From contig CANQCZ010000004.1 in NCBI GenBank assembly GCA_947591215.1, positions 1,770 to 65,769 of the forward strand: a stretch of 64,000 bases of DNA, written 5' to 3'. The notes under the pieces were generated by a model that was not told the origin of the DNA, did no database searches, and saw only the letters and a list, made by a program, of their open reading frames with translations. Below, piece by piece: positions 11,689 through 63,791 of the stretch (positions within the stretch are counted from its first letter, which is position 1; every line of letters begins with the position of its first letter). The translations under genes were made by a program, and so were the position numbers. The stretch is from an uncultured Bacilli bacterium (GTDB taxonomy: Bacteria; Bacillota_I; Bacilli_A; RFN20; CAG-449).

Positions 11689-12225
11689 TTAAGCGGCTGC
11701 GGTGAAATTAATGACGAATTTGAATCCTCTTCCTTCGTCATCAGATCTTAAATCATAAGGATTATAAGTAATATGATAAGATCCTGCACAATCACCGGTT
11801 AATTCAATGTTAGAACGATTGCCAGTTCCTTCCTTCCAATCCTCTTTAGTTTTACCTGGGAATAAAGCTTTAAACGCATCGTTGCAAGCATCGAAATCAA
11901 CATCTTCCATACCATATTGGACATCCCAACTTGGTCCGGCAATGAATTTAAACATCGGGCTTTCAGTAGCCATCGCATCAGTCACTTCAAGATCGTAATA
12001 ATAGATACTGGTTTCTCCTTGTCTAAGGAATTTACAAGACGGATCAGCTGCTTCTTCAATAGTATCTGGGGTCCAGCTGTTCCAATGAGAACCAATAACA
12101 TACATCGTTTCTTCAGGAGCGACATACTGACTATTGTTTTGTTCAAACTCATCTCCGCTTCCGCTGCAGCCGACTAACCCAACTAATGCGACCGCGCAAA
12201 GAAGCATCTTTGTTTTGCTAAACAT
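11689..12225 (-). CDS. small lipoprotein, possible alpha-glucan-binding (CBM-like) module
   Basis: Lipobox LVGCSG. The aromatic pattern IGSHWNSWTP...FKFIAGPSWDVQYG resembles starch/glycogen-binding modules. Located between msmK and the binding protein. The function is inferred. Confidence 0.55.
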   Translation of the reverse strand: MFSKTKMLLCAVALVGLVGCSGSGDEFEQNNSQYVAPEETMYVIGSHWNSWTPDTIEEAADPSCKFLRQGETSIYYYDLEVTDAMATESPMFKFIAGPSWDVQYGMEDVDFDACNDAFKALFPGKTKEDWKEGTGNRSNIELTGDCAGSYHITYNPYDLRSDDEGRGFKFVINFTAAA

Positions 12226-12318
12226 TGTTTTTCTCCTTCCTTTTTTGAGCGGTTTTATACAAATCCGCTCATTAATAAATGTTTATATATTAATTAGGCA
12301 TAGCCTATTAATACCGAA

Positions 12319-13416
12319 TTAAATTGCCATTTCTGTATCAATATCGAAGAAATGGACTTTTTCGACTTTGAAATCGATTCTTAATTTATCGTGAATTGAA
12401 ATGATTTTGGTCGCTGGGAATTTAGCGACTAAATCAACTCCGCCAAATTCACTGTGAACATAATATTCATTTCCTAATAATTCAGCGACATTAACCTCTA
12501 TTTCGTAACCATCTTTTTCAACAGGAACGATATCTTCAGGTCTAATACCGAGAATAACCTTTTCGGGAATATCTTTACCTTCATAAACTTCTTTAGGAAT
12601 GACAAGTTCTCTTCCATCCGAGCATTTTGCAACACCGGTTTTTGAATCAAACTCAACCTTCAAGAAGTTCATCGCCGGAGAACCGATAAATCCCGCCACA
12701 AATAAGTTTGCCGGATGATTATAAATTTCAATCGGGGTACCGATTTGTTGAATGCGGCCTAATTTCATAACGACAATTCGTGTTGCCATTGTCATGGCTT
12801 CGGTTTGGTCGTGAGTAACATAAATGGTAGTCGCACCTAACGCTTCATGCAATTTAATGATCTCACTTCTCATTTGGACTCTCAACTTAGCATCCAAATT
12901 TGATAAAGGTTCATCCATTAAGAACACTTTCGCATTTCTAACGATAGCTCTTCCTAACGCCACACGTTGTCTTTGACCACCGGACAAGGCCTTCGGTTTA
13001 CGATCAAGGTATTCTTTAATTTGCAAAATTCTTGCCGCCTCGTGAACGCGTTTATCAATTTCATATTTCGGCATTCTACGAATTTTTAACCCAAAAGCCA
13101 TATTATCATAAACTGACATATGTGGATAAAGGGCGTAGCTTTGGAAAACCATCGCAATATCTCTATCTTTCGGAGTTTTATCGTTGCATAGTTCGTTATC
13201 AATGTAAAGTTCACCTTTTGTGATATCTTCCAAACCAGCAATCATTCTTAAGGTAGTGGATTTACCACAACCAGATGGGCCGACAAATACAATGAATTCA
13301 TGCTTTTTTATGTCGAGGTTGAAATCAAAAACAGCCTGAACATTATTATCGTAAATTTTGTCGATGTGCCTTAACGAAACATATGCTTCATCATTAGCGG
13401 TTAAATTTTTGTCCAT
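12319..13416 (-). CDS. msmK: sugar ABC transporter ATP-binding protein (MsmK/MalK/UgpC type)
   Basis: Walker A GPSGCGKST, signature LSGGQRQRVALGRA, Walker B FLMDEPLSNLD, and a C-terminal TOBE-like regulatory domain. Start moved to MDKNL (13416) because GGAGGAC lies upstream. The track ORF has 45 extra residues. Confidence 0.9.
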   Translation of the reverse strand: MDKNLTANDEAYVSLRHIDKIYDNNVQAVFDFNLDIKKHEFIVFVGPSGCGKSTTLRMIAGLEDITKGELYIDNELCNDKTPKDRDIAMVFQSYALYPHMSVYDNMAFGLKIRRMPKYEIDKRVHEAARILQIKEYLDRKPKALSGGQRQRVALGRAIVRNAKVFLMDEPLSNLDAKLRVQMRSEIIKLHEALGATTIYVTHDQTEAMTMATRIVVMKLGRIQQIGTPIEIYNHPANLFVAGFIGSPAMNFLKVEFDSKTGVAKCSDGRELVIPKEVYEGKDIPEKVILGIRPEDIVPVEKDGYEIEVNVAELLGNEYYVHSEFGGVDLVAKFPATKIISIHDKLRIDFKVEKVHFFDIDTEMAI

Positions 13417-16992: not shown

Positions 16993-17586
16993 ATGCCAAT
17001 TATTCCCGCAATCAGTATTCAAAGTTATGACGGAGTAAAAAATTACGACTTGTTTTCTTTACTATTGAGCGAAAGAATCATTGTTTTGTCAGGCGAAATC
17101 AATGATGAAGTCGCTTCTTTGGTGATTTCTGAAATTCTTTATTTGAGCGCCGCTTCACCGAGTGAAAAAATAACGATTTACATAAATTCACCGGGTGGAT
17201 CGGTAAGCGCCGGTTTGGCGATTTACGATGCGATGAAAATTTCACCATGTACCATCGAAACAATCGGGGTTGGACTTTGTGCATCTATGGGAGCTTTTTT
17301 GCTTTCAAGCGGCACCAAAGGTTATCGTCGCGCCTATCCTAATTGTGAGATTATGATTCATCAACCATTAGGGGGCACCAACGGGCAAGTCAGCGACTTA
17401 GAAATCATGACTAAACGTTTTATTTTCTTAAAAAAGAAACTCAATCGCATCTTAAGCGAAAATACATCACAACCAATCGAAAAAATCGAAGCCGATTGTG
17501 ATAGGGATTATTTTTTAGAGCCTCAAGAAGCAAAGGATTATAACTTGATTGATGATATTTTAAGTCGATCTTCCAACAAAGAATAA
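16993..17586 (+). CDS. clpP: ATP-dependent Clp protease proteolytic subunit
   Basis: YINSPGGSV, catalytic Ser in GLCASMGAF, His in MIHQPLGG, Asp in DRDYF. Confidence 0.9.
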   Translation: MPIIPAISIQSYDGVKNYDLFSLLLSERIIVLSGEINDEVASLVISEILYLSAASPSEKITIYINSPGGSVSAGLAIYDAMKISPCTIETIGVGLCASMGAFLLSSGTKGYRRAYPNCEIMIHQPLGGTNGQVSDLEIMTKRFIFLKKKLNRILSENTSQPIEKIEADCDRDYFLEPQEAKDYNLIDDILSRSSNKE

Positions 17587-50762: not shown

Positions 50763-51839
50763 ATGAAGAAGAATGTATTATGTGCTTTAGCACTCTTAGG
50801 AGTCGTCGGAACTCTTGCTTCATGTGGTGGAAATGAAGGCGAACCCTCATCAAATGGTGGAGCATCTTCTAATTCTACTAACGGAGGTACTAGTACTGCT
50901 TACAAATTAGGTTTAGGACAAGCGATTAGTCTTACAAAAGGAGACGATGATATCATAACTCAAATTGATATCACCTTTGCTTCTGTGGTTTACCAAGGCG
51001 AAAAAGTTGTTAGCACCTACATCGATGTAGTACAACTCCCAATCGTCTACACTGCTGCGGACGGTGATACTGAAGAAAGTTACGCTTACAAAGACACTGC
51101 AAATCAAGTCAAAAACGCTGGAGATAAAAACGTTGAGACTAAAAAGGAACTTAAAGAGCGTTATGGTATGTCAGTTATCCCAGGTGTTACAGAATGGTAT
51201 GTCCAAGCTGGTAAATTTGAAGATTGGGCTACCGGTAAAAATTTCAACGATTTAACTGTTACCAAAGGCGAAGTAGACGATAACCATAGTGAAGAATGGA
51301 CTAATAACGTCACTGGTTGTACTATTTTAGTTGACGATTTCGTCACCGCGATGAAAAACGCCAAAAATCACAGCGTTGATTTTACTTCAGATGAAGCTCC
51401 AAAAGCTGGTGTCGGTGTTCTTGTCGGTGCTGCCGGTAGTCAAATTGATGTCAACTTTGCTTCAGTTGCTAACGTTGGAAACAAGGCTGCCGCAAGTGTT
51501 GTCGATGTTTATCAAATTCCTTTAAAAGAAGGAGTTTTAGATGCTGATAACAAGGCCGTTAAAAACAAATTAGACGGTACCGAATTTGCTTCTAAGTTTG
51601 AACTTAAGGAAAACTATGGTATGTCAGTTATCCCAGGTGTTACAGAATGGTATGTCCAAGCTGAAAAATTCCAAGAATGGGCTATGGGAAAAACTTCCGA
51701 AGAATTAAATGGCTTTACCGTCGGTCAACCAGACGATAGTCATAGTGAAGAATGGACTAACAATATCACTGGTTGTACTATGTCAGTCGGAGATTTTGTT
51801 GCTGCTATTCAAGAAGGCATGACCAACAAAAGAGCTTAA
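50763..51839 (+). CDS. lipoprotein with two tandem FMN_bind-like domains (PplA-like candidate flavoprotein)
   Basis: Lipobox TLASCGG. An internal duplication of about 150 aa, with each copy ending in ...YGMSVIPGVTEWYVQA...HSEEWTNN(V/I)TGCT.... The TGCT aligns with the SGAT flavinylation motif of FMN_bind domains. Confidence 0.7.
   Translation: MKKNVLCALALLGVVGTLASCGGNEGEPSSNGGASSNSTNGGTSTAYKLGLGQAISLTKGDDDIITQIDITFASVVYQGEKVVSTYIDVVQLPIVYTAADGDTEESYAYKDTANQVKNAGDKNVETKKELKERYGMSVIPGVTEWYVQAGKFEDWATGKNFNDLTVTKGEVDDNHSEEWTNNVTGCTILVDDFVTAMKNAKNHSVDFTSDEAPKAGVGVLVGAAGSQIDVNFASVANVGNKAAASVVDVYQIPLKEGVLDADNKAVKNKLDGTEFASKFELKENYGMSVIPGVTEWYVQAEKFQEWAMGKTSEELNGFTVGQPDDSHSEEWTNNITGCTMSVGDFVAAIQEGMTNKRA
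51162..51210 (+). repeat. 49-nt exact direct repeat, copy 1 (inside the lipoprotein gene)
   Basis: tatggtatgtcagttatcccaggtgttacagaatggtatgtccaagctg is identical to 51615-51663. Confidence 0.9.
51615..51663 (+). repeat. 49-nt exact direct repeat, copy 2
   Basis: Identical to 51162-51210. The flanking codons have diverged. Confidence 0.9.
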
Positions 51840-52415: not shown

Positions 52416-52723
52416 TTTCTCATTTAATCTATAATTATTTAAATCTTAAATAATATCAACGTGAAATCACCTTGTACTGACTAATCCGATAAGAGCTAAT
52501 ACTCCACTGACCCATAAAGATCATGGAGGATCTAGCAACTAAGCATATTATCTTTCTTAATTTTGATATATTCTTTTTGTATCAAGTTCCATGTCAACAC
52601 AAAGTATTTCTCGCCTAGAATACCTTGTTTTCAAATTTATATTTTAAGTTTACAAATCTTTCAAATATCATCAAACTCAAACTGCTTTTTCCATTTTAAA
52701 CTTCATAGAAATTTGAAATAGGT

Positions 52724-52766
52724 GCCAAAGCAAGACAAAGAAGTTGGTCACAAGTGTCACAACTTC
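52724..52766 (-). terminator. candidate terminator of the long minus-strand operon
   Basis: Minus strand: GAAGTTG-(13 nt)-CAACTTC followed by TTTGTCTTGCTTT, about 45 nt after the stop at 52811. A second imperfect hairpin (CGGG-ttt-CCCG core) lies at about 52775-52800. Confidence 0.4.
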
Positions 52767-52810
52767 GCCCCTCAACAAACGGGAAACCCGCTTTTGGAGG
52801 TAGAATCAAA

Positions 52811-54832
52811 TTAATCTTTCACTGAGATTTGGCTTTTAAAAGCGTTCCAAAGACGACTGCGTTTATATTGTTCCACTAAGCTTGAAGGAACTGTAAATTC
52901 AGCTTTTTCATCTATTGAATAAAATGCATTTGCACCAAATGGTATGACTCTATCGCAGTGAATCAAAATCTTTTTAAGCCAATGGCAATAGCGAAAAGCA
53001 TTCATTCCTATCTCGACAGTTTCTGCCGGCAATTCAATCGTCTCTAATTCGTCACAATATGCAAATGCCCAGTCGCCTATTCGGTTAACATTATTGAAAA
53101 TAATTGTTTTCAATGCGCTGTTGTTATAAAAACTCCACCTACCGAAATTTTTCACATCATTTAACTCAAGCATTTCCAAATACGGATTGTTCCGGCAAAA
53201 ATCATCGCATATATCGCCGTGCACAATTAACGTTTTTATTTGAGGACACTCACCTGAAAAATAATACGAGAGTTTACGGTTACCGGGAATATCCATCTGT
53301 TTCAATTTGATACAATTATAAAAGATTCCTTTACCTATGCTTGTGGACTTTGCAATAGAAACAGACCGCAAATCCGTCGCGTAAAACGCATAATCTCCGA
53401 TAGAATGTCCTATGAATTCAAAATCTTTAACAGCTGTTTTTCCAAAAGCCACAATTCCGATTTTTTGAAGATCATTCGGCACGACACATAGACTATGGCA
53501 ATTCCATAACGCTCCCTTTTCTGCATAAACCAATCCTTTCACATTTATAAGCTGCGCACAATTTGTCATGGCGCAAGGAGCAAAATTTTTTACAGCAATC
53601 TGCTTTAAGGAAGAACATCCGAACATGCCAAACTTGCCTATCGAATCTATGTCGAGATTTTCATCCAGCATTTTGCAATTGTAAAATGCAAACGGTGGGA
53701 CTGATTTGGGGATAAAATCGACATGTTTTAAGCTTGTACAATTGTAAAATATGCCCTCTGGAAAATCTATCTTCTTTCCAAATATCACTGATTCAACCTT
53801 TGTATTGGCAAAACAATATCCCGAAAGCATCTCTATACCATGCGGCAAGGTAACTTCCCGTTCGATACCTAAATATTTATATAATGTCTTGCCTAGAATG
53901 GCAAATGAGCCTTGATCTTTAAACCACTTTGTGTCGTACAAAGCACTGTTTCCAATATGCTCTACGCTTTCACCACCATGGATTAACTTAAGGTTTTTTG
54001 CCCCAAGGAAAGCGTGTTCGCCGATGAATTTCAAAGTATGTGGAAGATTTATTTCAACTAAACCACTACACTTTGAGAATGCGTAATCTCCGATCATCTC
54101 AATGCCATCGGGAATTAGTATTTCCGTCATTTCACTGCGATCATGAAATGCGCCACTTGCAATAACCTTTACCGGTACACCGTCGATCTTTGCCGGTATA
54201 ATATGCTTTTTTAAACTTTTCCCTTCTTTCGTCAATCCTTTGATCTCAATAATATCGCCTTTACGGTTATACTTAAACTCATGATAGATCCCAAAGGACT
54301 TAGTTTCATATTTAATGTTTGAAGCGTTTTTGGTCGACAGCACTACAATCTTACAAAATTCACATCTCTCGTCGTATATCTTTTCAAATATATACGGCGG
54401 AGTAGAAGATGAGCAAAGCAATTTGATATTAGGATACATTTTTCTCAACCGATTGGCAAATAAAAACCAATCGCCACACTCCTGAATCTCATTAACAACA
54501 AGATATGTAATTTCATGCCGTTCCATAATTGCCTTTTGAAAAACATCTAAAATATTCGCTTCTTGCAGAAACGGCAATTCGTAATCAAGATATAATATTT
54601 GTTCTTTTTCTATACCTCGCTGCAAAAGATCGCGGCAAATACGACCAAGCATATCTGTCTTACGCAGCCCCGTTTCCCCCACCAAAAAAACATAATTATT
54701 CTGTGCGTTATCAAAATATAGTTCTTGCACTTCATTGTAATCATACGCAAATGCTGGATCGGAAAAATCTGTGTCAGGTGCGTCTTCGAAAACGTCATGA
54801 TTTATAATATAATTGATAAATTTTTCTTTCAT
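52811..54832 (-). CDS. AAA_14-like P-loop NTPase domain (degenerate Walker motifs) fused to BspA-type leucine-rich repeats (LRR_5)
   Basis: Residues ~45-165, YVFLVGETGLRKTDM...ILYLDYE...YLVVNEIQECGDW...KLLCSSS, follow the AAA_14 layout. From residue ~210 to the end there are about 10 repeats of the form IP.gv..IG..AF..C..L. No signal peptide and no TM segment. Confidence 0.75.
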   Translation of the reverse strand: MKEKFINYIINHDVFEDAPDTDFSDPAFAYDYNEVQELYFDNAQNNYVFLVGETGLRKTDMLGRICRDLLQRGIEKEQILYLDYELPFLQEANILDVFQKAIMERHEITYLVVNEIQECGDWFLFANRLRKMYPNIKLLCSSSTPPYIFEKIYDERCEFCKIVVLSTKNASNIKYETKSFGIYHEFKYNRKGDIIEIKGLTKEGKSLKKHIIPAKIDGVPVKVIASGAFHDRSEMTEILIPDGIEMIGDYAFSKCSGLVEINLPHTLKFIGEHAFLGAKNLKLIHGGESVEHIGNSALYDTKWFKDQGSFAILGKTLYKYLGIEREVTLPHGIEMLSGYCFANTKVESVIFGKKIDFPEGIFYNCTSLKHVDFIPKSVPPFAFYNCKMLDENLDIDSIGKFGMFGCSSLKQIAVKNFAPCAMTNCAQLINVKGLVYAEKGALWNCHSLCVVPNDLQKIGIVAFGKTAVKDFEFIGHSIGDYAFYATDLRSVSIAKSTSIGKGIFYNCIKLKQMDIPGNRKLSYYFSGECPQIKTLIVHGDICDDFCRNNPYLEMLELNDVKNFGRWSFYNNSALKTIIFNNVNRIGDWAFAYCDELETIELPAETVEIGMNAFRYCHWLKKILIHCDRVIPFGANAFYSIDEKAEFTVPSSLVEQYKRSRLWNAFKSQISVKD

Positions 54833-55512
54833 TTTTGATTCTCTCCCAAGGTTAAAAGTCTATTGTATACGGTCGAAAATTTTCCAACATCTTTGTCCAC
54901 GTGATAATGTCCGAAATACCATTTACGATACTCAACCGTATCTTTGATTGTCTCTAAATAATCGTTCAAAATTCGTTCTTGCGGCACAAGATTGGCTCCT
55001 ATTCGTTCGGCGACTGAAGTCGGTGCAACATGGGTAAGAACATAATCTACACGATTGCCGCACTGTTTCAAATTGGTTATTCCTCTTTCATATTCCTGTT
55101 CATTTGGCATTTCTTGATCCCATACGGAAATCGGCGAGGTTCCGTCAAGTTTTTTTACCGAAAAGCCACCCCCGAAAACGAATATCTTTGTATTATCGAA
55201 TGAAAATATGCATCCTCTCATCAGTCGATAGATTTTATCGCTAATTTTTTGCGCTTTGCCACCAAAAAAATTCTGTTCCTCATATTGTTCCAGCAGGTCG
55301 AAATTCTCATGATTGCCATCCAAAAACAAAGTTATATTCGGCAAAGAGTTATAAAACTCCCTTACCTCCTTATGTTCGGTTTTACTCCAAACGATTCCAG
55401 CATCTCCGAGAATAATGAGATAATCATCTTTTTGCAAGGGTATATTTTGCAAGAGTCCTTTAAGATAAGGAAGTCTTATATGCCCATGAATATCCGAAGT
55501 TAAATAGATCAT
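54829..55512 (-). CDS. calcineurin-like metallophosphoesterase
   Basis: Motifs SDIHGH, LGDAGIVW, DGNHEN and THVAP. Confidence 0.8.
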   Translation of the reverse strand: MIYLTSDIHGHIRLPYLKGLLQNIPLQKDDYLIILGDAGIVWSKTEHKEVREFYNSLPNITLFLDGNHENFDLLEQYEEQNFFGGKAQKISDKIYRLMRGCIFSFDNTKIFVFGGGFSVKKLDGTSPISVWDQEMPNEQEYERGITNLKQCGNRVDYVLTHVAPTSVAERIGANLVPQERILNDYLETIKDTVEYRKWYFGHYHVDKDVGKFSTVYNRLLTLGENQK

Positions 55513-58145
55513 TTAACGACCTCCTTTATAAGAGATGTAGATGTGTGAGCAAAAGCATTTTCTCCAAATGTAACTCCTCGTTTATAAGTAATCCGGGCAA
55601 GAGCTTTATCATAAGCAAAGGCCTTTTCATCTACATTCTTCACGTTGCGCAAATCTATTTCACGTAAATAATACGCATCCGATAAAGCTCGAAAAGCAAT
55701 TTTCTCCGTTACGTCAGGCGCTGTATATTTTTCATTCTTCTTCCCGATTGCATATTGAAGTAATGTTTTTTTATCAGCAGTATAAAGGTTGCCGTCTTGT
55801 GATGCAAATGCCGCATTGTTATCCGATACCGATATCCACTTTAGGCGTTCACAAGAACCGAATGCATAAGTACCGATTTCAATGACATTCGACGGGATTG
55901 ATATTTCACTCAACAAATCGCAACCATGGAATGCCCACGCACCGATAAAGACGAGCGAATCGGGAAGTTCAATTACAAGCAGATTTTTGCAATCGTCAAA
56001 TGCGCTAGTCTCAATTTTCTTAACGGTGCACGGCAATATGACTTTTTCGATGTTCCTTGCATTTTGAAATGCGTTACGTCCGATTGTTTCAACTCCCTCA
56101 GGAACAGTATATACTTTTTCGGGGGAAGCAAGCGGATACCTTACAAGCGTTTTCTTGTCCTTAGAGAACAGCACCCCAGATTCCGTACAATAAAATTTGT
56201 TATCTTTCTCAACGAAGATTTTTTTAATGCTGCTCGAATAGAAACAAGTTGGATCGACAACTTTGACAGAAGCATTTACATATAACTTTCCGGCATAAGA
56301 ATTATTTGTGCCGATTTCTTTCAATTCATCATAATGAACGAATCTCAATTCATGGCTTTGCGTCAAAGCTTCCACGTCGATTCCATAAGCAAATAAATCA
56401 CGCATGGTACGTTCAGCATCTTGCTCTAAGGCTTTCAGCAGATATTCCTTTGCTTTTTCCAAATCTTTTTCCACGCCTACTCCGTTCAAAAAACAATATG
56501 CTATGTCTCCGGTTCCGTGCGAATAGTGGTTCTTTGACGCCATTTCAAAATATTCCATAGCCTTTTGCGCATCAGCTTTTACGCCGTATCCGTGCAAATA
56601 ATTTTGTCCAACATCGCGCATCGAATGAACATATCCAAGATCGGCGGATTTCTTATACCAATAAAAAGATTTCTCTTCATTCTTCTCTACGCCCTGTCCC
56701 ACAAGATACATATAACCAAGGTCACACATTGCTTCGAGATTTCCCAAATTGGCCGCTTCTAAATAATATCCGAAAGCTATGTCAAAATTTCGCACTTTGC
56801 CGAGCCCAAACGAATACATATCGCCGAGAAGTACTAAAAAATCCGCTTTTTTATTTTTCGCCTTGCGTTCTATCTCGTCTTTTATTTCTGCTACGATTGA
56901 TTGTGCTTTGGAAATATCTTGAGAAGCACCATTCCCTTCAAAGTAACCTAATGCATAGTAAAATGCGCCTTTAGGATTTCCAAGCTTGGCCGCTCTAAAG
57001 AAACAGATTTGCGATAATTCTTTGTGCCGATAAAATCTTTTGCTTCCGATAGAATATTCTTTTCCTCTTTTAATCCATTCCTCAGAATCGATATTCGAGT
57101 AAATCCCATCGAAAACTCCAACTAAATAGTGGTCATCAAACCAAGCACATTTACAAGGCTGCACACTACGTTCCAGTCTGGACAAAGTGTCGATTTTTTC
57201 TATCCAAAGTTCCTCCTTGAGCGGCAAATATTCAAGCAAGCCAAGTTGTGCTTCTTGCGTAATCATCTCAGACACTAGACATTTGATACCGACCGCCTGT
57301 GCCTCAATCGAAACTATCGATAAACCCTCATATAAAGACGGCAATAGCAATCCATATGATAACGACATGAGTTCTGTAATGTTGCTGTCAGGTGGTAAAA
57401 TCTTAATATTATTAAGTCCGTTACGCGAAATAAAACTCTCGATTTCTTGCTGTAAATGACCATGACCTACAAAAACAAACCCAATATCCGTTCTATCCCG
57501 CATATTCAAACACAGATTTAATAAAAATTCGATATTCTTTTGCTTCGCAAATCTTCCCACGAATAAAAAATATTTTTTGTTTGCATCTAATCCGTACTTT
57601 GCAAATTCTTTATTGTCCATGTCGAAGAATCGGGAATAATCTATTGCATTGTATATTGTTTCGCCATCACGTCCATATAGGAACTCTCTTGCCGCATCGG
57701 AGCAAGCGAGGCAATGCGTCGCATATTTTTTTACCATCCGTGCAGAAATTGCTTTTGCTATTCTCTTTCCTAAAGTCAAGCCACGTGGATTGGCTTGATG
57801 ACAGTGGGATATCCGAACCGGCACGTTTTCTTTATATGATTGCTTCAAGTACAATCCATTATTTGAAAAATAGTGCGAATGAACGGCAATCGGCTTCTCT
57901 TTTCTTATGATTTCTCTTATTTGTTTTGACTGCCGCAATGAGCGTATAAGTCCCCGTCCCTTAACGCATACATCATACACTTTCCCACCTAGTGATAAAA
58001 TCTCTTCTCGATAATGGTCGTTTCTCTTTGCCGTATTAATAAAAATAAATTGATACTCGGTATGCATTTTGCGATACAATGTCATAATAAAGGACGAAAT
58101 CCCGTTTATTCTCAAATTGCCACCTATTTGAATGACTTTTTTCAT
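55509..58145 (-). CDS. GT4-family glycosyltransferase fused to Sel1 repeats and BspA-type LRRs
   Basis: Residues 1-~340 form a GT-B fold with FLFVGRFAKQKN and YEGLSIVSIEAQAVG. Residues ~385-600 hold about 5 Sel1-like repeats (LGYMYLVGQGVEKNEEKSFYWYKKSADLG and similar). Residues ~640-878 hold LRR_5 repeats (VPEGVETIGRNAFQNARNIEKVILP...). No signal peptide. Confidence 0.75.
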   Translation of the reverse strand: MKKVIQIGGNLRINGISSFIMTLYRKMHTEYQFIFINTAKRNDHYREEILSLGGKVYDVCVKGRGLIRSLRQSKQIREIIRKEKPIAVHSHYFSNNGLYLKQSYKENVPVRISHCHQANPRGLTLGKRIAKAISARMVKKYATHCLACSDAAREFLYGRDGETIYNAIDYSRFFDMDNKEFAKYGLDANKKYFLFVGRFAKQKNIEFLLNLCLNMRDRTDIGFVFVGHGHLQQEIESFISRNGLNNIKILPPDSNITELMSLSYGLLLPSLYEGLSIVSIEAQAVGIKCLVSEMITQEAQLGLLEYLPLKEELWIEKIDTLSRLERSVQPCKCAWFDDHYLVGVFDGIYSNIDSEEWIKRGKEYSIGSKRFYRHKELSQICFFRAAKLGNPKGAFYYALGYFEGNGASQDISKAQSIVAEIKDEIERKAKNKKADFLVLLGDMYSFGLGKVRNFDIAFGYYLEAANLGNLEAMCDLGYMYLVGQGVEKNEEKSFYWYKKSADLGYVHSMRDVGQNYLHGYGVKADAQKAMEYFEMASKNHYSHGTGDIAYCFLNGVGVEKDLEKAKEYLLKALEQDAERTMRDLFAYGIDVEALTQSHELRFVHYDELKEIGTNNSYAGKLYVNASVKVVDPTCFYSSSIKKIFVEKDNKFYCTESGVLFSKDKKTLVRYPLASPEKVYTVPEGVETIGRNAFQNARNIEKVILPCTVKKIETSAFDDCKNLLVIELPDSLVFIGAWAFHGCDLLSEISIPSNVIEIGTYAFGSCERLKWISVSDNNAAFASQDGNLYTADKKTLLQYAIGKKNEKYTAPDVTEKIAFRALSDAYYLREIDLRNVKNVDEKAFAYDKALARITYKRGVTFGENAFAHTSTSLIKEVVK

Positions 58146-59806
58146 TTTCGAATTATCTCCGCTTTACAATTATTGAAGGTATTCGGAAGAATCTTTATAT
58201 GTTTCGGTACAATAACTCTTTTCAAGCCATGACATCCATCAAAACACCAATCGGCAATTTCTTCCACGCTTTCGGGAATCTCTATTTCTTCAAGCTCGAC
58301 GCATTCCGAAAATGCACTCCTGCCAAGAAAGCGGAGCCCCTTCGGCAGTACGATTTTTTTAAGTGTGTAGCAACCTGTAAAAGCACTTCTACCGATATTG
58401 ACTACGCCTTCCGGCAAAACAATATTTCCTTCTTTTACCGCCGTCGAGGGACAAAAAACCACCTCTTTCCCTGTGGCATCATATAAGATGCCGTACCGCT
58501 CCATATAATATGGGCTATGATTTTCGAGAACTACGTTTCTACAATTCGCAAACGGATTATAACCAATCTGTCTGACAGAGGCTGGAATTATAATTTTTTC
58601 TATCATATCGCAATTCCAAAAACAATTTCTCCCAATGGTCCTTACTGTTTCGGGGAGTTTTACAATTTTTACTCCCAATCCCATCGAATAATGCATACAA
58701 GTAGTAATATTTTTGTCATACAATACGCCATCGATATAATGAAAATATTCACTTTCATTTTTGAGTTTGATGTTACGACAATCCGAAAAAGCATTGTTTC
58801 CCATAAATGTCACATTCTTGGTTATGACAACAAGGCGGAGATTTACGCATTTGTAAAAGCTGTGCTTACCTATCCACGTTACGCTTTCTGGAATTCGGTA
58901 TTCCCAAGAAGGATTGCTTGCCGTATAATGAATCAAAAACTTCATTTCACGATCAAACAGAACTCCATCTTTCAGGACAAAATACACACTGTTGTTTTCT
59001 ATTTCAATATCTAGGCAACCCGCAAACGGATCATCTCCCATTTCATCGACACTAGCAGGAATATTTATTTTTTTCAGGTTTTTACAGTAAACAAAAGCAT
59101 CACCGCAAATACAAGTCACACTATCTGGCAAAATTACTTCCTTAATAGCAAGATTTTTCCAAAAAGCCCCCGTGCCTATGCTTGTAATTCCGTTCGGTAT
59201 CTTCACAACAGGAGCACTGCCGAGATATTTTATCAATTCACCATTTTTGACATAAAACTCTTTCTCGTATTCTTGTTCATCGTAATCAATAGAAAAAGTA
59301 TCAGGATACAATGGAGCTTTTTTTTCAAACAACCCTTTGGTAAATTTCTTATCCAACACATGGATTTCTGACTTAAAATCCACAAGGCCACCGGAAAGTT
59401 GTGAAGTGTAGAGACATTCATTCTTCCCGCTCGATCGATAGCCACTTATGAGTTTCTCATAATCTTTTCCCCACCCGGAAACATAAATTCCAATATATAA
59501 AATTTTTGTCTGCGGATAAGTAATAGCAATATCATAGCCATCTGAATTGACAAGCACGCAAGAAGAATCATATCCCTTCTTCAACAATCTATCTATCACT
59601 TCTAAAATTGAGAAATCTTTGTACGCACGCAACTCGTAACTCTCACCACGATATTCAAACCTCTGCTCCTCGGAATATATTGTAATCGCGCAATCCTTAT
59701 AACGATATTTAAAGATATCGGGCGCCACTTCAAGGTAACCCAATTTCCGATAGAGAATAATGTATTTCATGTCAATAAACAATGTGTCTTTATGTTTTTC
59801 AATCAT
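58142..59806 (-). CDS. unknown ~190-aa N-terminal domain fused to BspA-type LRRs
   Basis: The C-terminal ~360 aa are LRR_5 repeats (IPNGITSIGTGAFWKNLAIKEVILP, LPEGVVNIGRSAFTGCYTLKKIVLP). I do not recognise the N-domain. No signal peptide. Confidence 0.7.
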   Translation of the reverse strand: MIEKHKDTLFIDMKYIILYRKLGYLEVAPDIFKYRYKDCAITIYSEEQRFEYRGESYELRAYKDFSILEVIDRLLKKGYDSSCVLVNSDGYDIAITYPQTKILYIGIYVSGWGKDYEKLISGYRSSGKNECLYTSQLSGGLVDFKSEIHVLDKKFTKGLFEKKAPLYPDTFSIDYDEQEYEKEFYVKNGELIKYLGSAPVVKIPNGITSIGTGAFWKNLAIKEVILPDSVTCICGDAFVYCKNLKKINIPASVDEMGDDPFAGCLDIEIENNSVYFVLKDGVLFDREMKFLIHYTASNPSWEYRIPESVTWIGKHSFYKCVNLRLVVITKNVTFMGNNAFSDCRNIKLKNESEYFHYIDGVLYDKNITTCMHYSMGLGVKIVKLPETVRTIGRNCFWNCDMIEKIIIPASVRQIGYNPFANCRNVVLENHSPYYMERYGILYDATGKEVVFCPSTAVKEGNIVLPEGVVNIGRSAFTGCYTLKKIVLPKGLRFLGRSAFSECVELEEIEIPESVEEIADWCFDGCHGLKRVIVPKHIKILPNTFNNCKAEIIRK

Positions 59807-60383
59807 GGATAAATCCTCTCTTTATTAGTTCGCTTTTCATTTTGGTAACAACTTCTTGTTCAGTCAAATCGGTCGTATCTAAAACGATACCCGGCATCTT
59901 GTATTTGTTCATGGCATATTGCATTTTTTTATATGCAGAAGGAATCAATGCCACCTTTTTAAGGTCGGGATCGTGAAGATTACGAGAACGCAATCTTCGT
60001 TCCACAACGATCGGATCGGCATAAACCAAAAAGGTAAAATCCGGTGCCCCAATCGTTTGGAAAATAGCATCGAAAATATAATCAGTATTTTGATCCCCGC
60101 TCCAACAGTAATTGGATAAGATATGCCTGTCCGTAATGATGTTTTGGTTTGCAAATCTTTCATAAAGATAAATATTGCCAAGCCCGTAAAACCAAGCAGT
60201 AAAGGCTTTATTTGGGTTTTTATTGACCTCATCACGGATACGGATGTACTCATCGTTCTTGCCATCCTCGTTAAATAAAAAATGTAAAGGCTTCTCAATC
60301 AACTTGAATCCAAGCATTTCGGAAAGGTTCCTAGCAGCCGTACTCTTTCCGACACCATCTATTCCTTCTATTGCAATATGCAT
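59799..60383 (-). CDS. thymidylate-kinase-like / deoxynucleoside(-monophosphate) kinase family P-loop protein
   Basis: N-terminal IAIEGIDGVGKST P-loop, a DRH-like motif (ITDRHILS), and a size of about 190 aa. Confidence 0.7.
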   Translation of the reverse strand: MHIAIEGIDGVGKSTAARNLSEMLGFKLIEKPLHFLFNEDGKNDEYIRIRDEVNKNPNKAFTAWFYGLGNIYLYERFANQNIITDRHILSNYCWSGDQNTDYIFDAIFQTIGAPDFTFLVYADPIVVERRLRSRNLHDPDLKKVALIPSAYKKMQYAMNKYKMPGIVLDTTDLTEQEVVTKMKSELIKRGFIHD

Positions 60384-60392
60384 ATGTTCCTC

Positions 60393-62087
60393 CTAATTAC
60401 TCGTTCTGGCACGAACTTCATTTTTCTTGCCCGATGTAAAACCGTCTAAAATTTCAAGATAACCGCTAACCCGTCTGATATGCGTTACATTTTCACACCC
60501 GCAAATCGGGCACAGATCAAACACCCCGGTGGCATGACAATTGTTGCAACTGTCAAGCGGAAAATTGATGCCGAGATATCTTACCCCCGCTGCAACTGCA
60601 ATTTCAACAAGCTCTTTAAGTCCCTCGTCGTTGCCTATCGGTGCCTCATTTAATTCGATATATGAGATGCTCCCACCATTTGCATAGAGGTGGAACGGTC
60701 CTTCTTTTGTCAGCTTTTCTCTTGCGGAAAGCCCGCTATCTACATTAACATGAAACGAATTTGTATAAAAACCCTTATCAAAGATATCGATATTTGGAGA
60801 AAACATCTTCTTATCCATTTCCGAAAATCTACCGCTTATCAACTCTCCACTTGTAGCAAGCAAAGAAAAGTTCAAATTTAATTTATTTCTTTGTTCGTCG
60901 CAATAGTTTCTCATAAACTTTACAAAATCAATGGCAATACGATAGGATTCATCGTTGGCATAATACCTGCTGCCTGTTATAATCTCGACCATCTCCGAAA
61001 GTCCGATAAATCCGATTGAAAGAGTACCATGTATAAACACATTCTTCGGATCATCGAATGGCACACACCACAATTGTCTTGATCTGTTTACGGGAAACTC
61101 ATCTGCATCGGAAATACATACCTTATGATAGCGATCCACCAAAATTTCGGTAACCATATCCGCTATTTCGGACCACCTCTCTTTTACCTTTGCAATTTTA
61201 TGAACCCACTCAAGATTTGGAAAGTCCCGATCCACTTCAAGAGCAAGTCGAGGAAGATTGATGCTGATATTAGCGATGTTTCCTCTTCCAATTGCCGTTT
61301 TCTCTCCAAATAGATCGTCAACCACACGCGTGCGGCAACCCATTACAGAAAGCTTTTCGGGAGCGACTCCTTCATCGGACGCACAATCGCAAAGAAGATA
61401 TGTCGGAATCATCTTCTTAGCCGAACATAGTAGTGCTTTTTGGAATAAATCAAAGTTGCCGTCTCCCGGATACCTATTGATTCCTTTTACGACCTTAAAC
61501 ACGATATTTGGCTTAAAAGTTGTCGCTCCTACCTTTTCGAATTCATTGATAAGTGCATATGCGATGAACCTCGCGAATTTATTTTTTGCAAGTCCTATAT
61601 TAAGCGTTATGTAATAACTTGTCTGTCCCATTCTTGTATGGGTGTTGCTGCACCAAATAATAAAGTCCCCTATGCATTCGGAGATAATGGCTTCCGTATG
61701 TTTTGAGTGCTTAACGCCGAGTTTAAAAAAAATTGTTGAAAGGTCATTATCGAAATTTGCGAATGCCATCCCACCGGACTGCTCATTTCCCATATCGGCA
61801 AACAACGTTTTAAAATAGCCGAATACCCGTATGATTTTTCCCGTTTCCGATAATCCATCAAACAATTGATATGGAAAATTTTGTAATAGGTTAAATGTCA
61901 AACAATTATAAGTTTTTCCGTAAGCATCTAGGTCATGAATGTGAATGTACCCTTCCGTGTGAAGTTTGGACCATTCTACGGGCAAAGAATCCAAAATTTC
62001 TTTTTTAAACTCTTTTTCGCCTTTATGATACACATAACCTACATAACTTGAGCGATTCGCCGCATTATCATTTGAAACTTGTTTCAT
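60393..62087 (-). CDS. nrdD: anaerobic ribonucleoside-triphosphate reductase (class III, short form without ATP-cone)
   Basis: C-terminal Zn ribbon CNNCHATGVFDLCPICGC followed by the glycyl-radical motif RRVSGYL. Adjacent to the activase. Confidence 0.85.
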   Translation of the reverse strand: MKQVSNDNAANRSSYVGYVYHKGEKEFKKEILDSLPVEWSKLHTEGYIHIHDLDAYGKTYNCLTFNLLQNFPYQLFDGLSETGKIIRVFGYFKTLFADMGNEQSGGMAFANFDNDLSTIFFKLGVKHSKHTEAIISECIGDFIIWCSNTHTRMGQTSYYITLNIGLAKNKFARFIAYALINEFEKVGATTFKPNIVFKVVKGINRYPGDGNFDLFQKALLCSAKKMIPTYLLCDCASDEGVAPEKLSVMGCRTRVVDDLFGEKTAIGRGNIANISINLPRLALEVDRDFPNLEWVHKIAKVKERWSEIADMVTEILVDRYHKVCISDADEFPVNRSRQLWCVPFDDPKNVFIHGTLSIGFIGLSEMVEIITGSRYYANDESYRIAIDFVKFMRNYCDEQRNKLNLNFSLLATSGELISGRFSEMDKKMFSPNIDIFDKGFYTNSFHVNVDSGLSAREKLTKEGPFHLYANGGSISYIELNEAPIGNDEGLKELVEIAVAAGVRYLGINFPLDSCNNCHATGVFDLCPICGCENVTHIRRVSGYLEILDGFTSGKKNEVRARTSN

Positions 62088-63202
62088 TTTTTCTCCCTCA
62101 GATTAATAAATTTTTGATTCGAAGATCCCAAATATGGTCTTGTCGTTGTTTTGTACCTTTCGTCAAATGCACCGATTTTAACGTAATGCAATTTTGACAA
62201 TATTGCTTGTGGTATGTCGGGCATATCATAACCCGTGTACATACAAAAATCAAATTCAGGCAACGCTTCAATTAGATTTTCGATTGCCTTTGCTTGCAAA
62301 AGCGGTTCGCCTCCCGAAAGAGTGATTTTTTTATTGAACGCCGTTTTGCGTATAATCTCTTTCAATTCTCCGACCGAGTATCGCGTGCCGCTTTCAAGCG
62401 GCCAAGTAGATGGGTTGTGACAATTTTTACAATGCCGTTTGCATCCTTGCAAATATATCACTGTTCGTAGCCCCGGTCCATCCACAAGCGACTCATGCTT
62501 CGAAATGGCATTGACATACAGCATCGAACTTTCAAATACTTCTTTCAGACATTTTAAGTTCGGAAGAGCAAGCATCGCTTTACTCGACGGGTGTTCCGTT
62601 ATCAAAATCGGCGTCAGCCCCACTGCTTCCGCTCCCTCGCAATCCTTGTCGATCTTATTCCCTACAAAATAAATTTCCCGACTTGCTCCCATCCCGATCA
62701 ATTCAAGGACTGCAGCAAAAGCTCGTTCCGACGGCTTTCTGTATCCAATATCTGCGCTGGAAATTAATCCTACAAAAAACTTAGATAAATAAAAGGTATC
62801 TAGATATTTTTTCAGTGTTACTGCAGAGAAAATGCTATTGCTAAGTACCGCCATCTTGTAACCACGCTCTTTCAAATAAGAAAGCGTATCAACTGCACCC
62901 TCTGACACTCTTTCCTTTCGGCAACAGATAAATGCCTCCCATTCAATATCTGCATACGATTTGGCAAAATGCTTACCAGTTTTCGTTTCATAAAACTTTA
63001 ACTGATGGACAAAACTTGTCTCACGATTGGTTTTATCTCTATCGCTCATATATTGCGAACGATATTCGGAAGCCAAATCATATATCCGTTTCTTTGCTTC
63101 GCCGAGACGTTCGGCTATGAGATCTAAAACCATATTATAATCGAACTGCTCCGTTTGAAGTAACGTTCCGAATAAGTCAAATAAAATAACTTTATCACTC
63201 AT
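62084..63202 (-). CDS. nrdG: fusion protein: HAD-superfamily hydrolase domain plus anaerobic RNR activating radical-SAM protein
   Basis: Residues 1-~215 are HAD (ILFDLFGTLL, VLSNS, YRKPS, FVGNKIDKD). Residues ~227-372 are NrdG (DGPGLRTVIYLQGCKRHCKNCHNP, ITLSGGEPL, GSSNQKFINL). One uninterrupted frame. No SD precedes the internal Met at 62524. Confidence 0.8.
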   Translation of the reverse strand: MSDKVILFDLFGTLLQTEQFDYNMVLDLIAERLGEAKKRIYDLASEYRSQYMSDRDKTNRETSFVHQLKFYETKTGKHFAKSYADIEWEAFICCRKERVSEGAVDTLSYLKERGYKMAVLSNSIFSAVTLKKYLDTFYLSKFFVGLISSADIGYRKPSERAFAAVLELIGMGASREIYFVGNKIDKDCEGAEAVGLTPILITEHPSSKAMLALPNLKCLKEVFESSMLYVNAISKHESLVDGPGLRTVIYLQGCKRHCKNCHNPSTWPLESGTRYSVGELKEIIRKTAFNKKITLSGGEPLLQAKAIENLIEALPEFDFCMYTGYDMPDIPQAILSKLHYVKIGAFDERYKTTTRPYLGSSNQKFINLREKK

Positions 63203-63221: not shown

Positions 63222-63791
63222 TTATAAGTTCATCATCGTATCCTTTTGGTAATTTCGCATATTCCAATTTTTCACGATCGCTTCATTCATTTTTAAAACG
63301 GACGAAAACGGTATTCTTGTAAGTCTCTTCACTCTCTCGTCACTAAAATGAGTATCGCCTATATAATAGATTATACCTACACCAGATTCTTTTATCTCTT
63401 CAATTTGGCGCATGAAATCTCTTTCCAAAATCTTTGCTCTCTTTTGACGATATCGCAGATTTTTTTTGTCTTTTTCTTTCTCGGATGAAAGCAGATATTG
63501 ATCATCCTGTATCCGTTCGTCAAAGTTTGGGATTCTTCGCTGATCTTGTATATTGTGACAATGCAAATATTGATCTTTTTTGTTTTGTTCTTTTAACAGT
63601 CTGTACTCCGAATACGAAATGCAATTAACTTCCGCAATTGCGTCTTTGTGGTCATGCTTTACACGTCCAAATTTACGAACACGTGTAGCGGCTTCGCTTC
63701 CGTTTTCAGCCATGACAGGAAAAACTATATAAATACACTTGCTTCTTCCAACATGCCCACATTTAGCTTTTACAGAATAATATTTTTTCAT
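63222..63791 (-). CDS. hypothetical KCGHVG-motif protein ending in a truncated metallophosphoesterase N-terminus
   Basis: Residues 1-~90 (KAKCGHVGRSK...RVKHDHKDAI) resemble small uncharacterised proteins I associate with Firmicute mobile DNA. Residues ~140-189, IIYYIGDTHFSDERVKRLTRIPFSSVLKMNEAIVKNWN, form motif I of a phosphoesterase. The ORF stops before motif II. Confidence 0.55.
   Translation of the reverse strand: MKKYYSVKAKCGHVGRSKCIYIVFPVMAENGSEAATRVRKFGRVKHDHKDAIAEVNCISYSEYRLLKEQNKKDQYLHCHNIQDQRRIPNFDERIQDDQYLLSSEKEKDKKNLRYRQKRAKILERDFMRQIEEIKESGVGIIYYIGDTHFSDERVKRLTRIPFSSVLKMNEAIVKNWNMRNYQKDTMMNL

Follow-up and report, generated by a model that had tools for sequence, protein, structure and literature searches.

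Here we describe a 673-residue protein in which a stripped derivative of the AAA_14 ATPases is joined to a solenoid of LRR_5 leucine-rich repeats (LRRs), encoded at positions 52811-54832 on the minus strand of a 64,000-nucleotide stretch of DNA from an uncultured Bacilli bacterium (contig CANQCZ010000004.1 of assembly GCA_947591215.1, positions 1,770 to 65,769; hereafter, the window). The constituent domains are known, and it is their combination, an AAA_14-derived pseudo-ATPase followed by LRR_5 repeats within a gene cassette linked to nrdD and nrdG, that appears to be new. In the literature that we searched, no paper connects LRR_5 with any bacterial NTPase, or LRR proteins with anaerobic ribonucleotide reductase (RNR), in keeping with the statement in an initial annotation of the DNA that no described AAA_14–LRR_5 protein is known. 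The interpretation that we favor, with moderate confidence, is that the protein is a non-hydrolyzing adaptor, which would bind a nucleotide or other phosphate-bearing ligand and dock through its LRRs to a conserved partner from the cassette.

The domain anatomy is clear from profile matches. Pfam places AAA_14 (PF13173) on residues 47-152 at 35.0 bits, above its gathering score of 27 and spanning positions 4-107 of the 129-position profile, and LRR_5 (PF13306) on five stretches covering about 460 residues at 190.7 bits, with no further informative family, so that both domain calls of the initial annotation are confirmed. Its proposal that LRR_5 has replaced the DUF4143 domain (PF13635) also stands: The latter has no Pfam match in the protein, and the LRR_5 region comes directly after strand β5. 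The N-terminal domain (N-domain, residues 1-178), an AAA+ α/β core, is encoded by 54299-54832 on the minus strand and carries both Walker motifs in altered form, A as GETGLRKT (residues 52-59; 54656-54679) and B as YLVVNEIQ (residues 110-117; 54482-54505). The remainder, 52811-54298, encodes a β-hairpin cap (residues 179-215), the LRR_5 repeats (residues 216-673) and the stop codon. The cap sequence (EIKGLT...IP..I.G.PV..I...AF) is typical of the BspA/TpLRR-type LRR_5 family.

To place the N-domain required a fold search, since a sequence search against the PDB returned only the P-loop of DotB, at E 1.3. A confident AlphaFold model (pLDDT 86.6, pTM 0.74), for which 28 family sequences were aligned, comprises helix α0 (residues 26-39) and five β–α units (β1-β5), followed by LRR-capping β-hairpins. 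Only about 46 residues, mostly helix α0, stand ahead of β1; at the other end, β5 (residues 160-164) leads through a short loop, modeled with low confidence at 170-177, into the cap hairpins at 179-200, and neither a helical lid nor a winged helix is present in the model. Foldseek comparison with the PDB gave AAA+ cores at probability 1.00, with modest TM scores of 0.40-0.48; the best matches include Orc1/Cdc6, TRIP13, DnaA domain III, DnaC, ClpA, RFC, and IstB, and the first STAND protein, Avs4, appears at rank 37. A non-NTPase fold, which the initial annotation had named as grounds for abandoning its reading, is thus not what the model and its structural matches indicate.

In an exhaustive HMMER search of an N-domain profile against 1.84 billion representatives, 13 full-length family representatives scored 193-297 bits, accompanied by fragments, and the N-domain occurred only in LRR_5 fusions. 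The next full-length matches reached at most 73 bits, a gap of more than 100 bits, and all eight of those checked were canonical AAA_14+DUF4143 proteins of 460-507 residues. These COG1373-type ATPases (PF13173 plus PF13635) are the nearest relatives, having a homologous N-domain with the same β1-β5 core, the EIQ that follows Walker B, and a Ser-rich end of β4. Relative to them, the family described here has lost the entire C-terminal half (lid plus DUF4143), with LRR_5 in its place, and has altered its motifs: GK[ST] of Walker A is changed to [RKH]K[KT], with loss of the Gly before the Walker Lys and of the Ser/Thr after it, Walker B reads NE instead of DE, and ESGxGR has disappeared. The N-domain, at about 165 residues, is a stripped AAA_14 derivative found only as an LRR_5 fusion.

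The unusual P-loop is maintained throughout the family. A search of 5.8 billion proteins identified 87 clusters that share the AAA_14-like plus LRR_5 architecture (34-100% identity, most of about 676 residues), and residue counts were made over the 86 clusters longer than 600 residues, which derive from independent assemblies. The Walker A lysine (K58) is present in 85/85 members with a residue at that column, as is E115 of Walker B in 86/86, and the Walker B aspartate is replaced by N114 in 85/86. The glycine before the Walker lysine, on the other hand, is kept in only five members; at position 57, 63 of the 86 have a basic residue (Arg, Lys, or His), and the Mg-coordinating Ser/Thr at position 59 survives in 28, with Lys in 42. 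The resulting family pattern, G-x-[TS]-x-L-[RKHN]-K-[KT..], and the Walker B substitution leave both Mg2+-ligand positions altered across the family. Outside the nucleotide site, Met1 and the N-terminal motifs are invariant, including Y30-D31-x-N33-E34-x-x-E37 in helix α0, and the stretch after β5 (L165-S166-x-K-N-x-S-N-x-K174) is invariant in its polar residues (S166, K168, N169, S171, N172, K174).

Selection on the gene is purifying: In comparison with an 85%-identical orthologue, the ratio of nonsynonymous to synonymous substitution rates (dN/dS) is 0.148 overall and 0.098 in the N-domain, against 0.086 for NrdD from the same genome pair. Given the conservation of K58, N114, and E115 and the low dN/dS, the P-loop reads as a fixed, selected variant rather than a product of decay. 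The initial annotation had called the Walker motifs degenerate; the altered residues are indeed where it placed them, and the canonical forms that it quoted for comparison are correct (the AAA_14+DUF4143 outgroups read GxRRVGKT[TS] and hh[FL]DE[IV]Q), but the degeneracy is not random, the same variant being fixed family-wide. With both Mg ligands lost and the Walker Lys and Glu invariant, the family would provide a clean natural example of a selected pseudo-ATPase. Since basic residues have been gained around Lys58 as the Mg ligands were lost, Mg-independent binding of a phosphate-rich ligand is suggested, presumably without hydrolysis by the protein itself.

The repeats are conserved to a similar degree. 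Mean pairwise identity is 0.448 in the N-domain, 0.608 in the cap, and 0.436 in the LRR region; the most conserved stretch of the protein, residues 151-325, covers the junction and the first repeats. Values of dN/dS range from 0.09 to 0.24, and even the central repeats, which vary most, have a value of 0.20. Because the LRR region is as conserved as the N-domain and under purifying selection, it is not a diversifying sensor, and the pattern fits a conserved binding partner that is probably endogenous.

Candidates for such a partner are encoded next to the gene, which is the last in a minus-strand run whose stop/start pairs mostly overlap by 4-8 nt; its own ATG overlaps the stop codon of the gene upstream by 4 nt (ATGA). 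That neighbor (54829-55512) encodes a 227-residue metallophosphoesterase with intact DIHGH, GD, GNHE, and GHYH motifs. Farther upstream on the same strand lie an 878-residue fusion of a GT4 glycosyltransferase, in which an E-x7-E motif is visible, with four Sel1 repeats and LRR_5 (55509-58145), which has no signal peptide or transmembrane (TM) segment by hydropathy; a 554-residue protein (LRR554; 58142-59806) with an unannotated 195-residue N-domain (59222-59806) followed by LRR_5; a 194-residue thymidylate-kinase-like P-loop kinase with the canonical GIDGVGKST (59799-60383); the class III (anaerobic) RNR NrdD (60393-62087), with its glycyl-radical motif RRVSGY and C-terminal Zn-ribbon; and an N-terminal HAD phosphatase fused to an NrdG-type radical-SAM activase (62084-63202). 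All of the partner enzymes keep their catalytic motifs, and only the P-loop of the LRR_5-fused AAA_14 derivative is degenerate. A scan of the cassette for terminators and promoters gave counts near the shuffle expectation.

The cassette is conserved as a unit. When its proteins were compared by tblastn with 18 genomic loci carrying a homologue of the AAA_14–LRR_5 gene, the seven-gene order was collinear in 15 (L001-L012, L014, L015, and L018), at 40-85% identity in the AAA_14–LRR_5 protein; L016 and L017 have minor rearrangements, and on the short contig L013 the phosphoesterase gene still adjoins. The genes flanking the cassette in the window are not conserved in the other loci, the remainder of the window is ordinary core chromosome, and cassette G+C content tracks that of the host, from 0.28 to 0.50. 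Several of the genes are also fused to one another in particular lineages. In L014, L015, L018, L019, and L020, the phosphoesterase is fused in frame to the C-terminus of the GT4-Sel1-LRR_5 protein, giving open reading frames (ORFs) of 1084-1111 residues, and the phosphoesterase matches residues 861-1075 of the L019 fusion with 38.6% identity. In two sub-lineages the AAA_14–LRR_5 protein is itself fused to a pyrophosphatase: 1016-residue forms carry a C-terminal inorganic pyrophosphatase domain (PF00719 in P0072, 27.5 bits against a cutoff of 23.5), and 805-813-residue forms in L014 and L018 have a pyrophosphatase-like tail, judged by eye from motifs. An L014-type protein, P0054, is named "inorganic pyrophosphatase" by one source, yet has no Pfam match to PF00719 at E<=0.001.

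Taken together, the cassette repeatedly joins phosphate and nucleotide chemistry to LRR_5 solenoids in the cytoplasm, and the Rosetta-stone fusions (GT4-Sel1-LRR_5-phosphoesterase, and the AAA_14–LRR_5 protein with pyrophosphatase) tie parts of it together. In the adaptor interpretation, the N-terminal module descends from AAA_14 ATPases by loss of the lid/DUF4143 half and of both Mg2+-coordinating residues; Lys58 and the positively charged P-loop would bind a phosphate-bearing ligand (a nucleotide, pyrophosphate, or similar), which the protein would hydrolyze slowly or not at all; and the LRR_5 solenoid would bind a conserved rather than a variable, foreign partner. The role of the protein would then be that of an adaptor or regulatory subunit, non-catalytic and dedicated to a cassette comprising the class III RNR and its activase, the dTMP-kinase-like protein, the GT4 glycosyltransferase, the metallophosphoesterase, sometimes the pyrophosphatase, and two more LRR_5 proteins. 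The three LRR_5 domains probably keep the cassette enzymes together or bring them to the same target; the proteins may associate physically, and the cassette may act in nucleotide or glycoconjugate metabolism. BspA-type LRRs have been treated almost wholly as surface adhesins, and the presence of three LRR_5 domains fused to cytoplasmic modules in one conserved operon suggests an intracellular scaffolding or recognition role for them.

There is a precedent of a kind for an AAA+ fold kept for other than catalytic purposes. The clamp-loader subunits δ and δ′ have AAA+ folds that neither bind nor hydrolyze ATP and play structural roles. They resemble the protein studied here in combining the AAA+ fold with a degenerate nucleotide site, which in our family is kept under selection, and RFC/clamp-loader chains are among the fold matches of the N-domain. 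Beyond the fold, however, there is no sequence relationship; δ and δ′ retain their lid and collar and work in assemblies with active AAA+ paralogues, a kind of partner that the cassette lacks.

Several observations weigh against the adaptor interpretation. Nucleotide binding is read from the retained Lys and Glu only; two members of the family, P0048 and P0064, keep the canonical G-K; and the Ser/Thr retained in 28/86 members includes Thr59 of the window protein, so some hydrolysis is possible. Part of the synteny could stem from common descent in a single low-GC clade, as the bin labels of the carriers are unreliable. The cassette lacks a single obvious pathway logic, defense genes (AbiH and MazE) adjoin the loci L019 and L020, and the AAA_14 region has a weak match to the PADLOC profile PDC-S01.

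A different reading of the same conserved residues is that the protein is an active enzyme of non-canonical chemistry, namely a Mg-independent NTPase, or a kinase or phosphotransferase acting on an LRR-presented substrate, whose catalytic site would be formed by the altered P-loop with the invariant Y30, D31, N33, E34, E37, S166, K168, N169, S171, N172, and K174. Helix α0 and the 165-174 loop do contain more invariant polar residues than a scaffold needs, E115, at the position of the AAA+ catalytic Glu, is invariant, and the recurrent pyrophosphatase fusion suggests a pyrophosphate-releasing reaction nearby. We nevertheless consider such an enzyme unlikely: Both Mg ligands have been lost together, the arginine-containing ESGxGR is missing, there is no lid domain, and the invariant residues might just as well make up a partner-binding site or the surface on which N-domain and LRRs meet.

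A more ambitious reading, which we regard as decidedly doubtful, concerns the cassette as a whole. It would constitute a cytoplasmic multi-protein machine built around the output of the class III RNR and the dTMP kinase, in which three or four LRR_5 solenoids carry a Mg-independent, phosphate-sensing pseudo-ATPase, a restriction endonuclease (REase)-like domain, and the GT4-phosphoesterase, and which would either produce or attach a modification derived from nucleotides or link deoxynucleotide supply to a self/non-self decision. If true, intracellular BspA-type LRRs would gain their first functional role in bacteria, and the NLR (NOD-like receptor)-like design of a nucleotide sensor plus LRRs would have been reached independently of STAND proteins. 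Whatever its logic, the cassette connects a glycosyltransferase, phosphoesterases, and a pyrophosphatase with the essential anaerobic RNR of low-GC gut bacteria that cannot yet be cultivated, and its function could bring to light a new part of their nucleotide or envelope metabolism or a new form of defense.

The initial annotation had proposed that the protein itself follows the NLR design, with a nucleotide-binding switch joined to an LRR sensor. In this view, the LRR_5 solenoid would detect an invader molecule and the P-loop would switch or oligomerize to trigger a response, perhaps through neighboring enzymes, for instance the phosphoesterase or LRR554 with its tentatively REase-like N-domain. 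Bacterial NLR-related proteins have a central NACHT domain with a winged helix-turn-helix extension, an N-terminal effector, and a C-terminal sensor, and true NACHT-LRR proteins such as bNACHT16 already exist (10.1101/2022.07.19.500537). The protein shares with these bNACHT/Avs STAND NTPases the order of a P-loop module before repeats and the conserved Walker A lysine, a residue that is essential in bNACHT01 (10.1101/2022.07.19.500537). KpAvs8, which is a genuine STAND sensor, has degenerate Walker motifs as well (10.64898/2026.01.04.697583), and Walker degeneracy alone therefore does not rule out a sensor role. Also on this side are the PDC-S01 match (34.3 bits, E 2.8e-9), which is weak and confined to profile positions 40-127 of 412, corresponding to the shared AAA_14 core; the AbiH and MazE genes downstream in L019/L020; and the tentatively REase-like N-domain of the partner LRR554.

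None of the NOD-specific features that could be examined is found in the protein, however. NACHT, NB-ARC, and STAND families have no Pfam match at E<=1; Walker B reads VVNEIQE, as opposed to the NACHT signature D[GAS]hDE (10.1101/2022.07.19.500537); neither Pfam nor the model contains an N-terminal effector domain; and helical and winged-helix domains are missing from what is a truncated AAA+ core, whose fold matches favor AAA+ initiators and clamp loaders over STAND proteins. The C-terminal repeat-sensor layout is present in the roughly 460 residues of LRR_5, but these are as conserved as the N-domain and under purifying selection, not diversifying. A hydrolysis-driven switch is unlikely with both Mg2+-ligand positions altered across the family. 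The gene, moreover, is not stand-alone but held in strict order with nrdD and nrdG in a housekeeping context, and the fusion is absent from phage and plasmid collections. On balance, an NLR/STAND-like immune sensor is improbable, and the case warns against mislabeling: The mere succession of P-loop and LRRs is not sufficient for an NLR.

The protein is likely cytoplasmic, as the initial annotation had predicted. Its hydropathy peaks at 1.19 (Kyte-Doolittle, 19-residue window) and its N-terminus is hydrophilic, as N-termini are throughout the family; at this level of analysis, no signal peptide, lipobox, or TM segment is apparent. For comparison, a 358-residue lipoprotein encoded about 1 kb away reaches 2.05 and has a clear lipobox. 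That such signals are missing had been presented as an oddity for a BspA-type LRR protein, a premise weaker than it seemed: Only 193/911 Trichomonas BspA-like proteins have a TM domain (PMC2843621), so that, in Trichomonas at least, BspA-like proteins commonly lack export signals. That the protein is an adhesin of the BspA type, on the surface or secreted, with an unrecognized export route and an incidental N-domain, is very improbable. LRR_5 proteins are classically surface adhesins, the LRR_5 match is strong (190.7 bits), and there are weak NCBIfam matches to the adhesins HupY/LrrG and Gli349. In contrast to such proteins, however, this one lacks an export signal or anchor, has its repeats fused to cytoplasmic-type modules (the P-loop and, in some lineages, the pyrophosphatase), and is translationally coupled to genes for cytoplasmic enzymes in an operon with two more cytoplasmic LRR_5 fusions.

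That the gene is an assembly chimera (the fusion of two genes envisaged in the initial annotation) or a decaying pseudogene can be dismissed as having a negligible chance, for despite one frameshifted copy, in a contig labeled "Methanomassiliicoccales RumEn M2", the architecture is common to 86 intact homologues longer than 600 residues from independent assemblies and to the 18 loci, with a dN/dS of 0.15 and an invariant Met1 and N-terminal motifs.

The frameshifts in that contig (L012/L021; LJKL01000016.1, "Methanomassiliicoccales archaeon RumEn M2") split both the phosphoesterase and the AAA_14–LRR_5 gene; it may be mis-binned, as the neighboring Flg_new, He_PIG, and LigT genes look bacterial. 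A "Promethearchaeota" bin (L017) also carries the gene. We considered and dropped cross-phylum horizontal transfer: Copies in "Treponema" and "Clostridiales" bins are 78% identical in the protein, the bin labels are unreliable, and G+C content is ameliorated to the host. The carriers resemble low-GC Clostridia of the gut (Coproplasma-like) and Acholeplasma-like lineages. A mobile-element origin was likewise rejected, as tblastn matches in phage and plasmid collections are confined to the LRR part (22-28% identity) and the N-domain has no match in PHROGs.

The HAD-like part is separate from NrdG in L012/L021, where tblastn places it after NrdD, and in L016 and L017 only the NrdG part was seen. 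In L016, an ORF directly downstream of the AAA_14–LRR_5 gene (12024-12908), in the spot taken by the fused pyrophosphatase in other lineages, appears to encode a PHP-type phosphoesterase, judged by eye from the N-terminal motif MKIDLHTHSNHS only. Immediately downstream of the pyrophosphatase-fused form lies an AbiH-family gene (L019, 13324-14226; L020, 11824-12726), followed in L019 by a MazE antitoxin gene (17206-17502); these two loci are the sole defense-type neighborhood seen.

Within the cassette, the N-domain of LRR554 stands out for its rarity, occurring in only 11 database proteins, with 40 invariant columns among 13 orthologues and no Pfam, PHROG, or PDB-sequence match. A confident model built from database homologues (pLDDT 84.2, pTM 0.79) had no fold match at E<=0.001; weak matches to the BsaXI nuclease domain (E 6.3e-3), a tRNA-splicing endonuclease (TSEN), and an REase-like protein tentatively suggest an REase-like fold, although no obvious conserved PD-(D/E)xK triad is present. 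A common origin with the N-domain of the AAA_14–LRR_5 protein was rejected (hhalign probability 0.8%). At the far end of the run, a 189-residue minus-strand ORF (63222-63791) may belong to the cassette. Its N-terminal region of about 80 residues (CGHVGR...RVKHxHKDAI) recurs fused to LRR_5 downstream of the AAA_14–LRR_5 gene in L015 (12070-12909), and its C-terminal 60 or so residues match only positions 18-79 of the phage phosphoesterase family phrog_547 and look like a truncated phosphoesterase remnant.

On the other side of the AAA_14–LRR_5 gene, about 395 bp of non-coding DNA (52416-52810) separate its stop codon from a convergent gene for a 135-residue membrane protein. This interval matches no Rfam family and contains no consensus terminator, only a short GCGGG-TTT-CCCGT hairpin right after the stop codon; when the whole window was scanned, neither Rfam families nor tRNA genes turned up near the locus. 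The lipoprotein used above for comparison is encoded at 50763-51839 on the plus strand; it carries the lipobox LASC, has no Pfam match, and contains an internal duplication of about 130 residues (YGMSVIPGVTEWYVQAxKFxxWAxGK ... SEEWTNNxTGCT).

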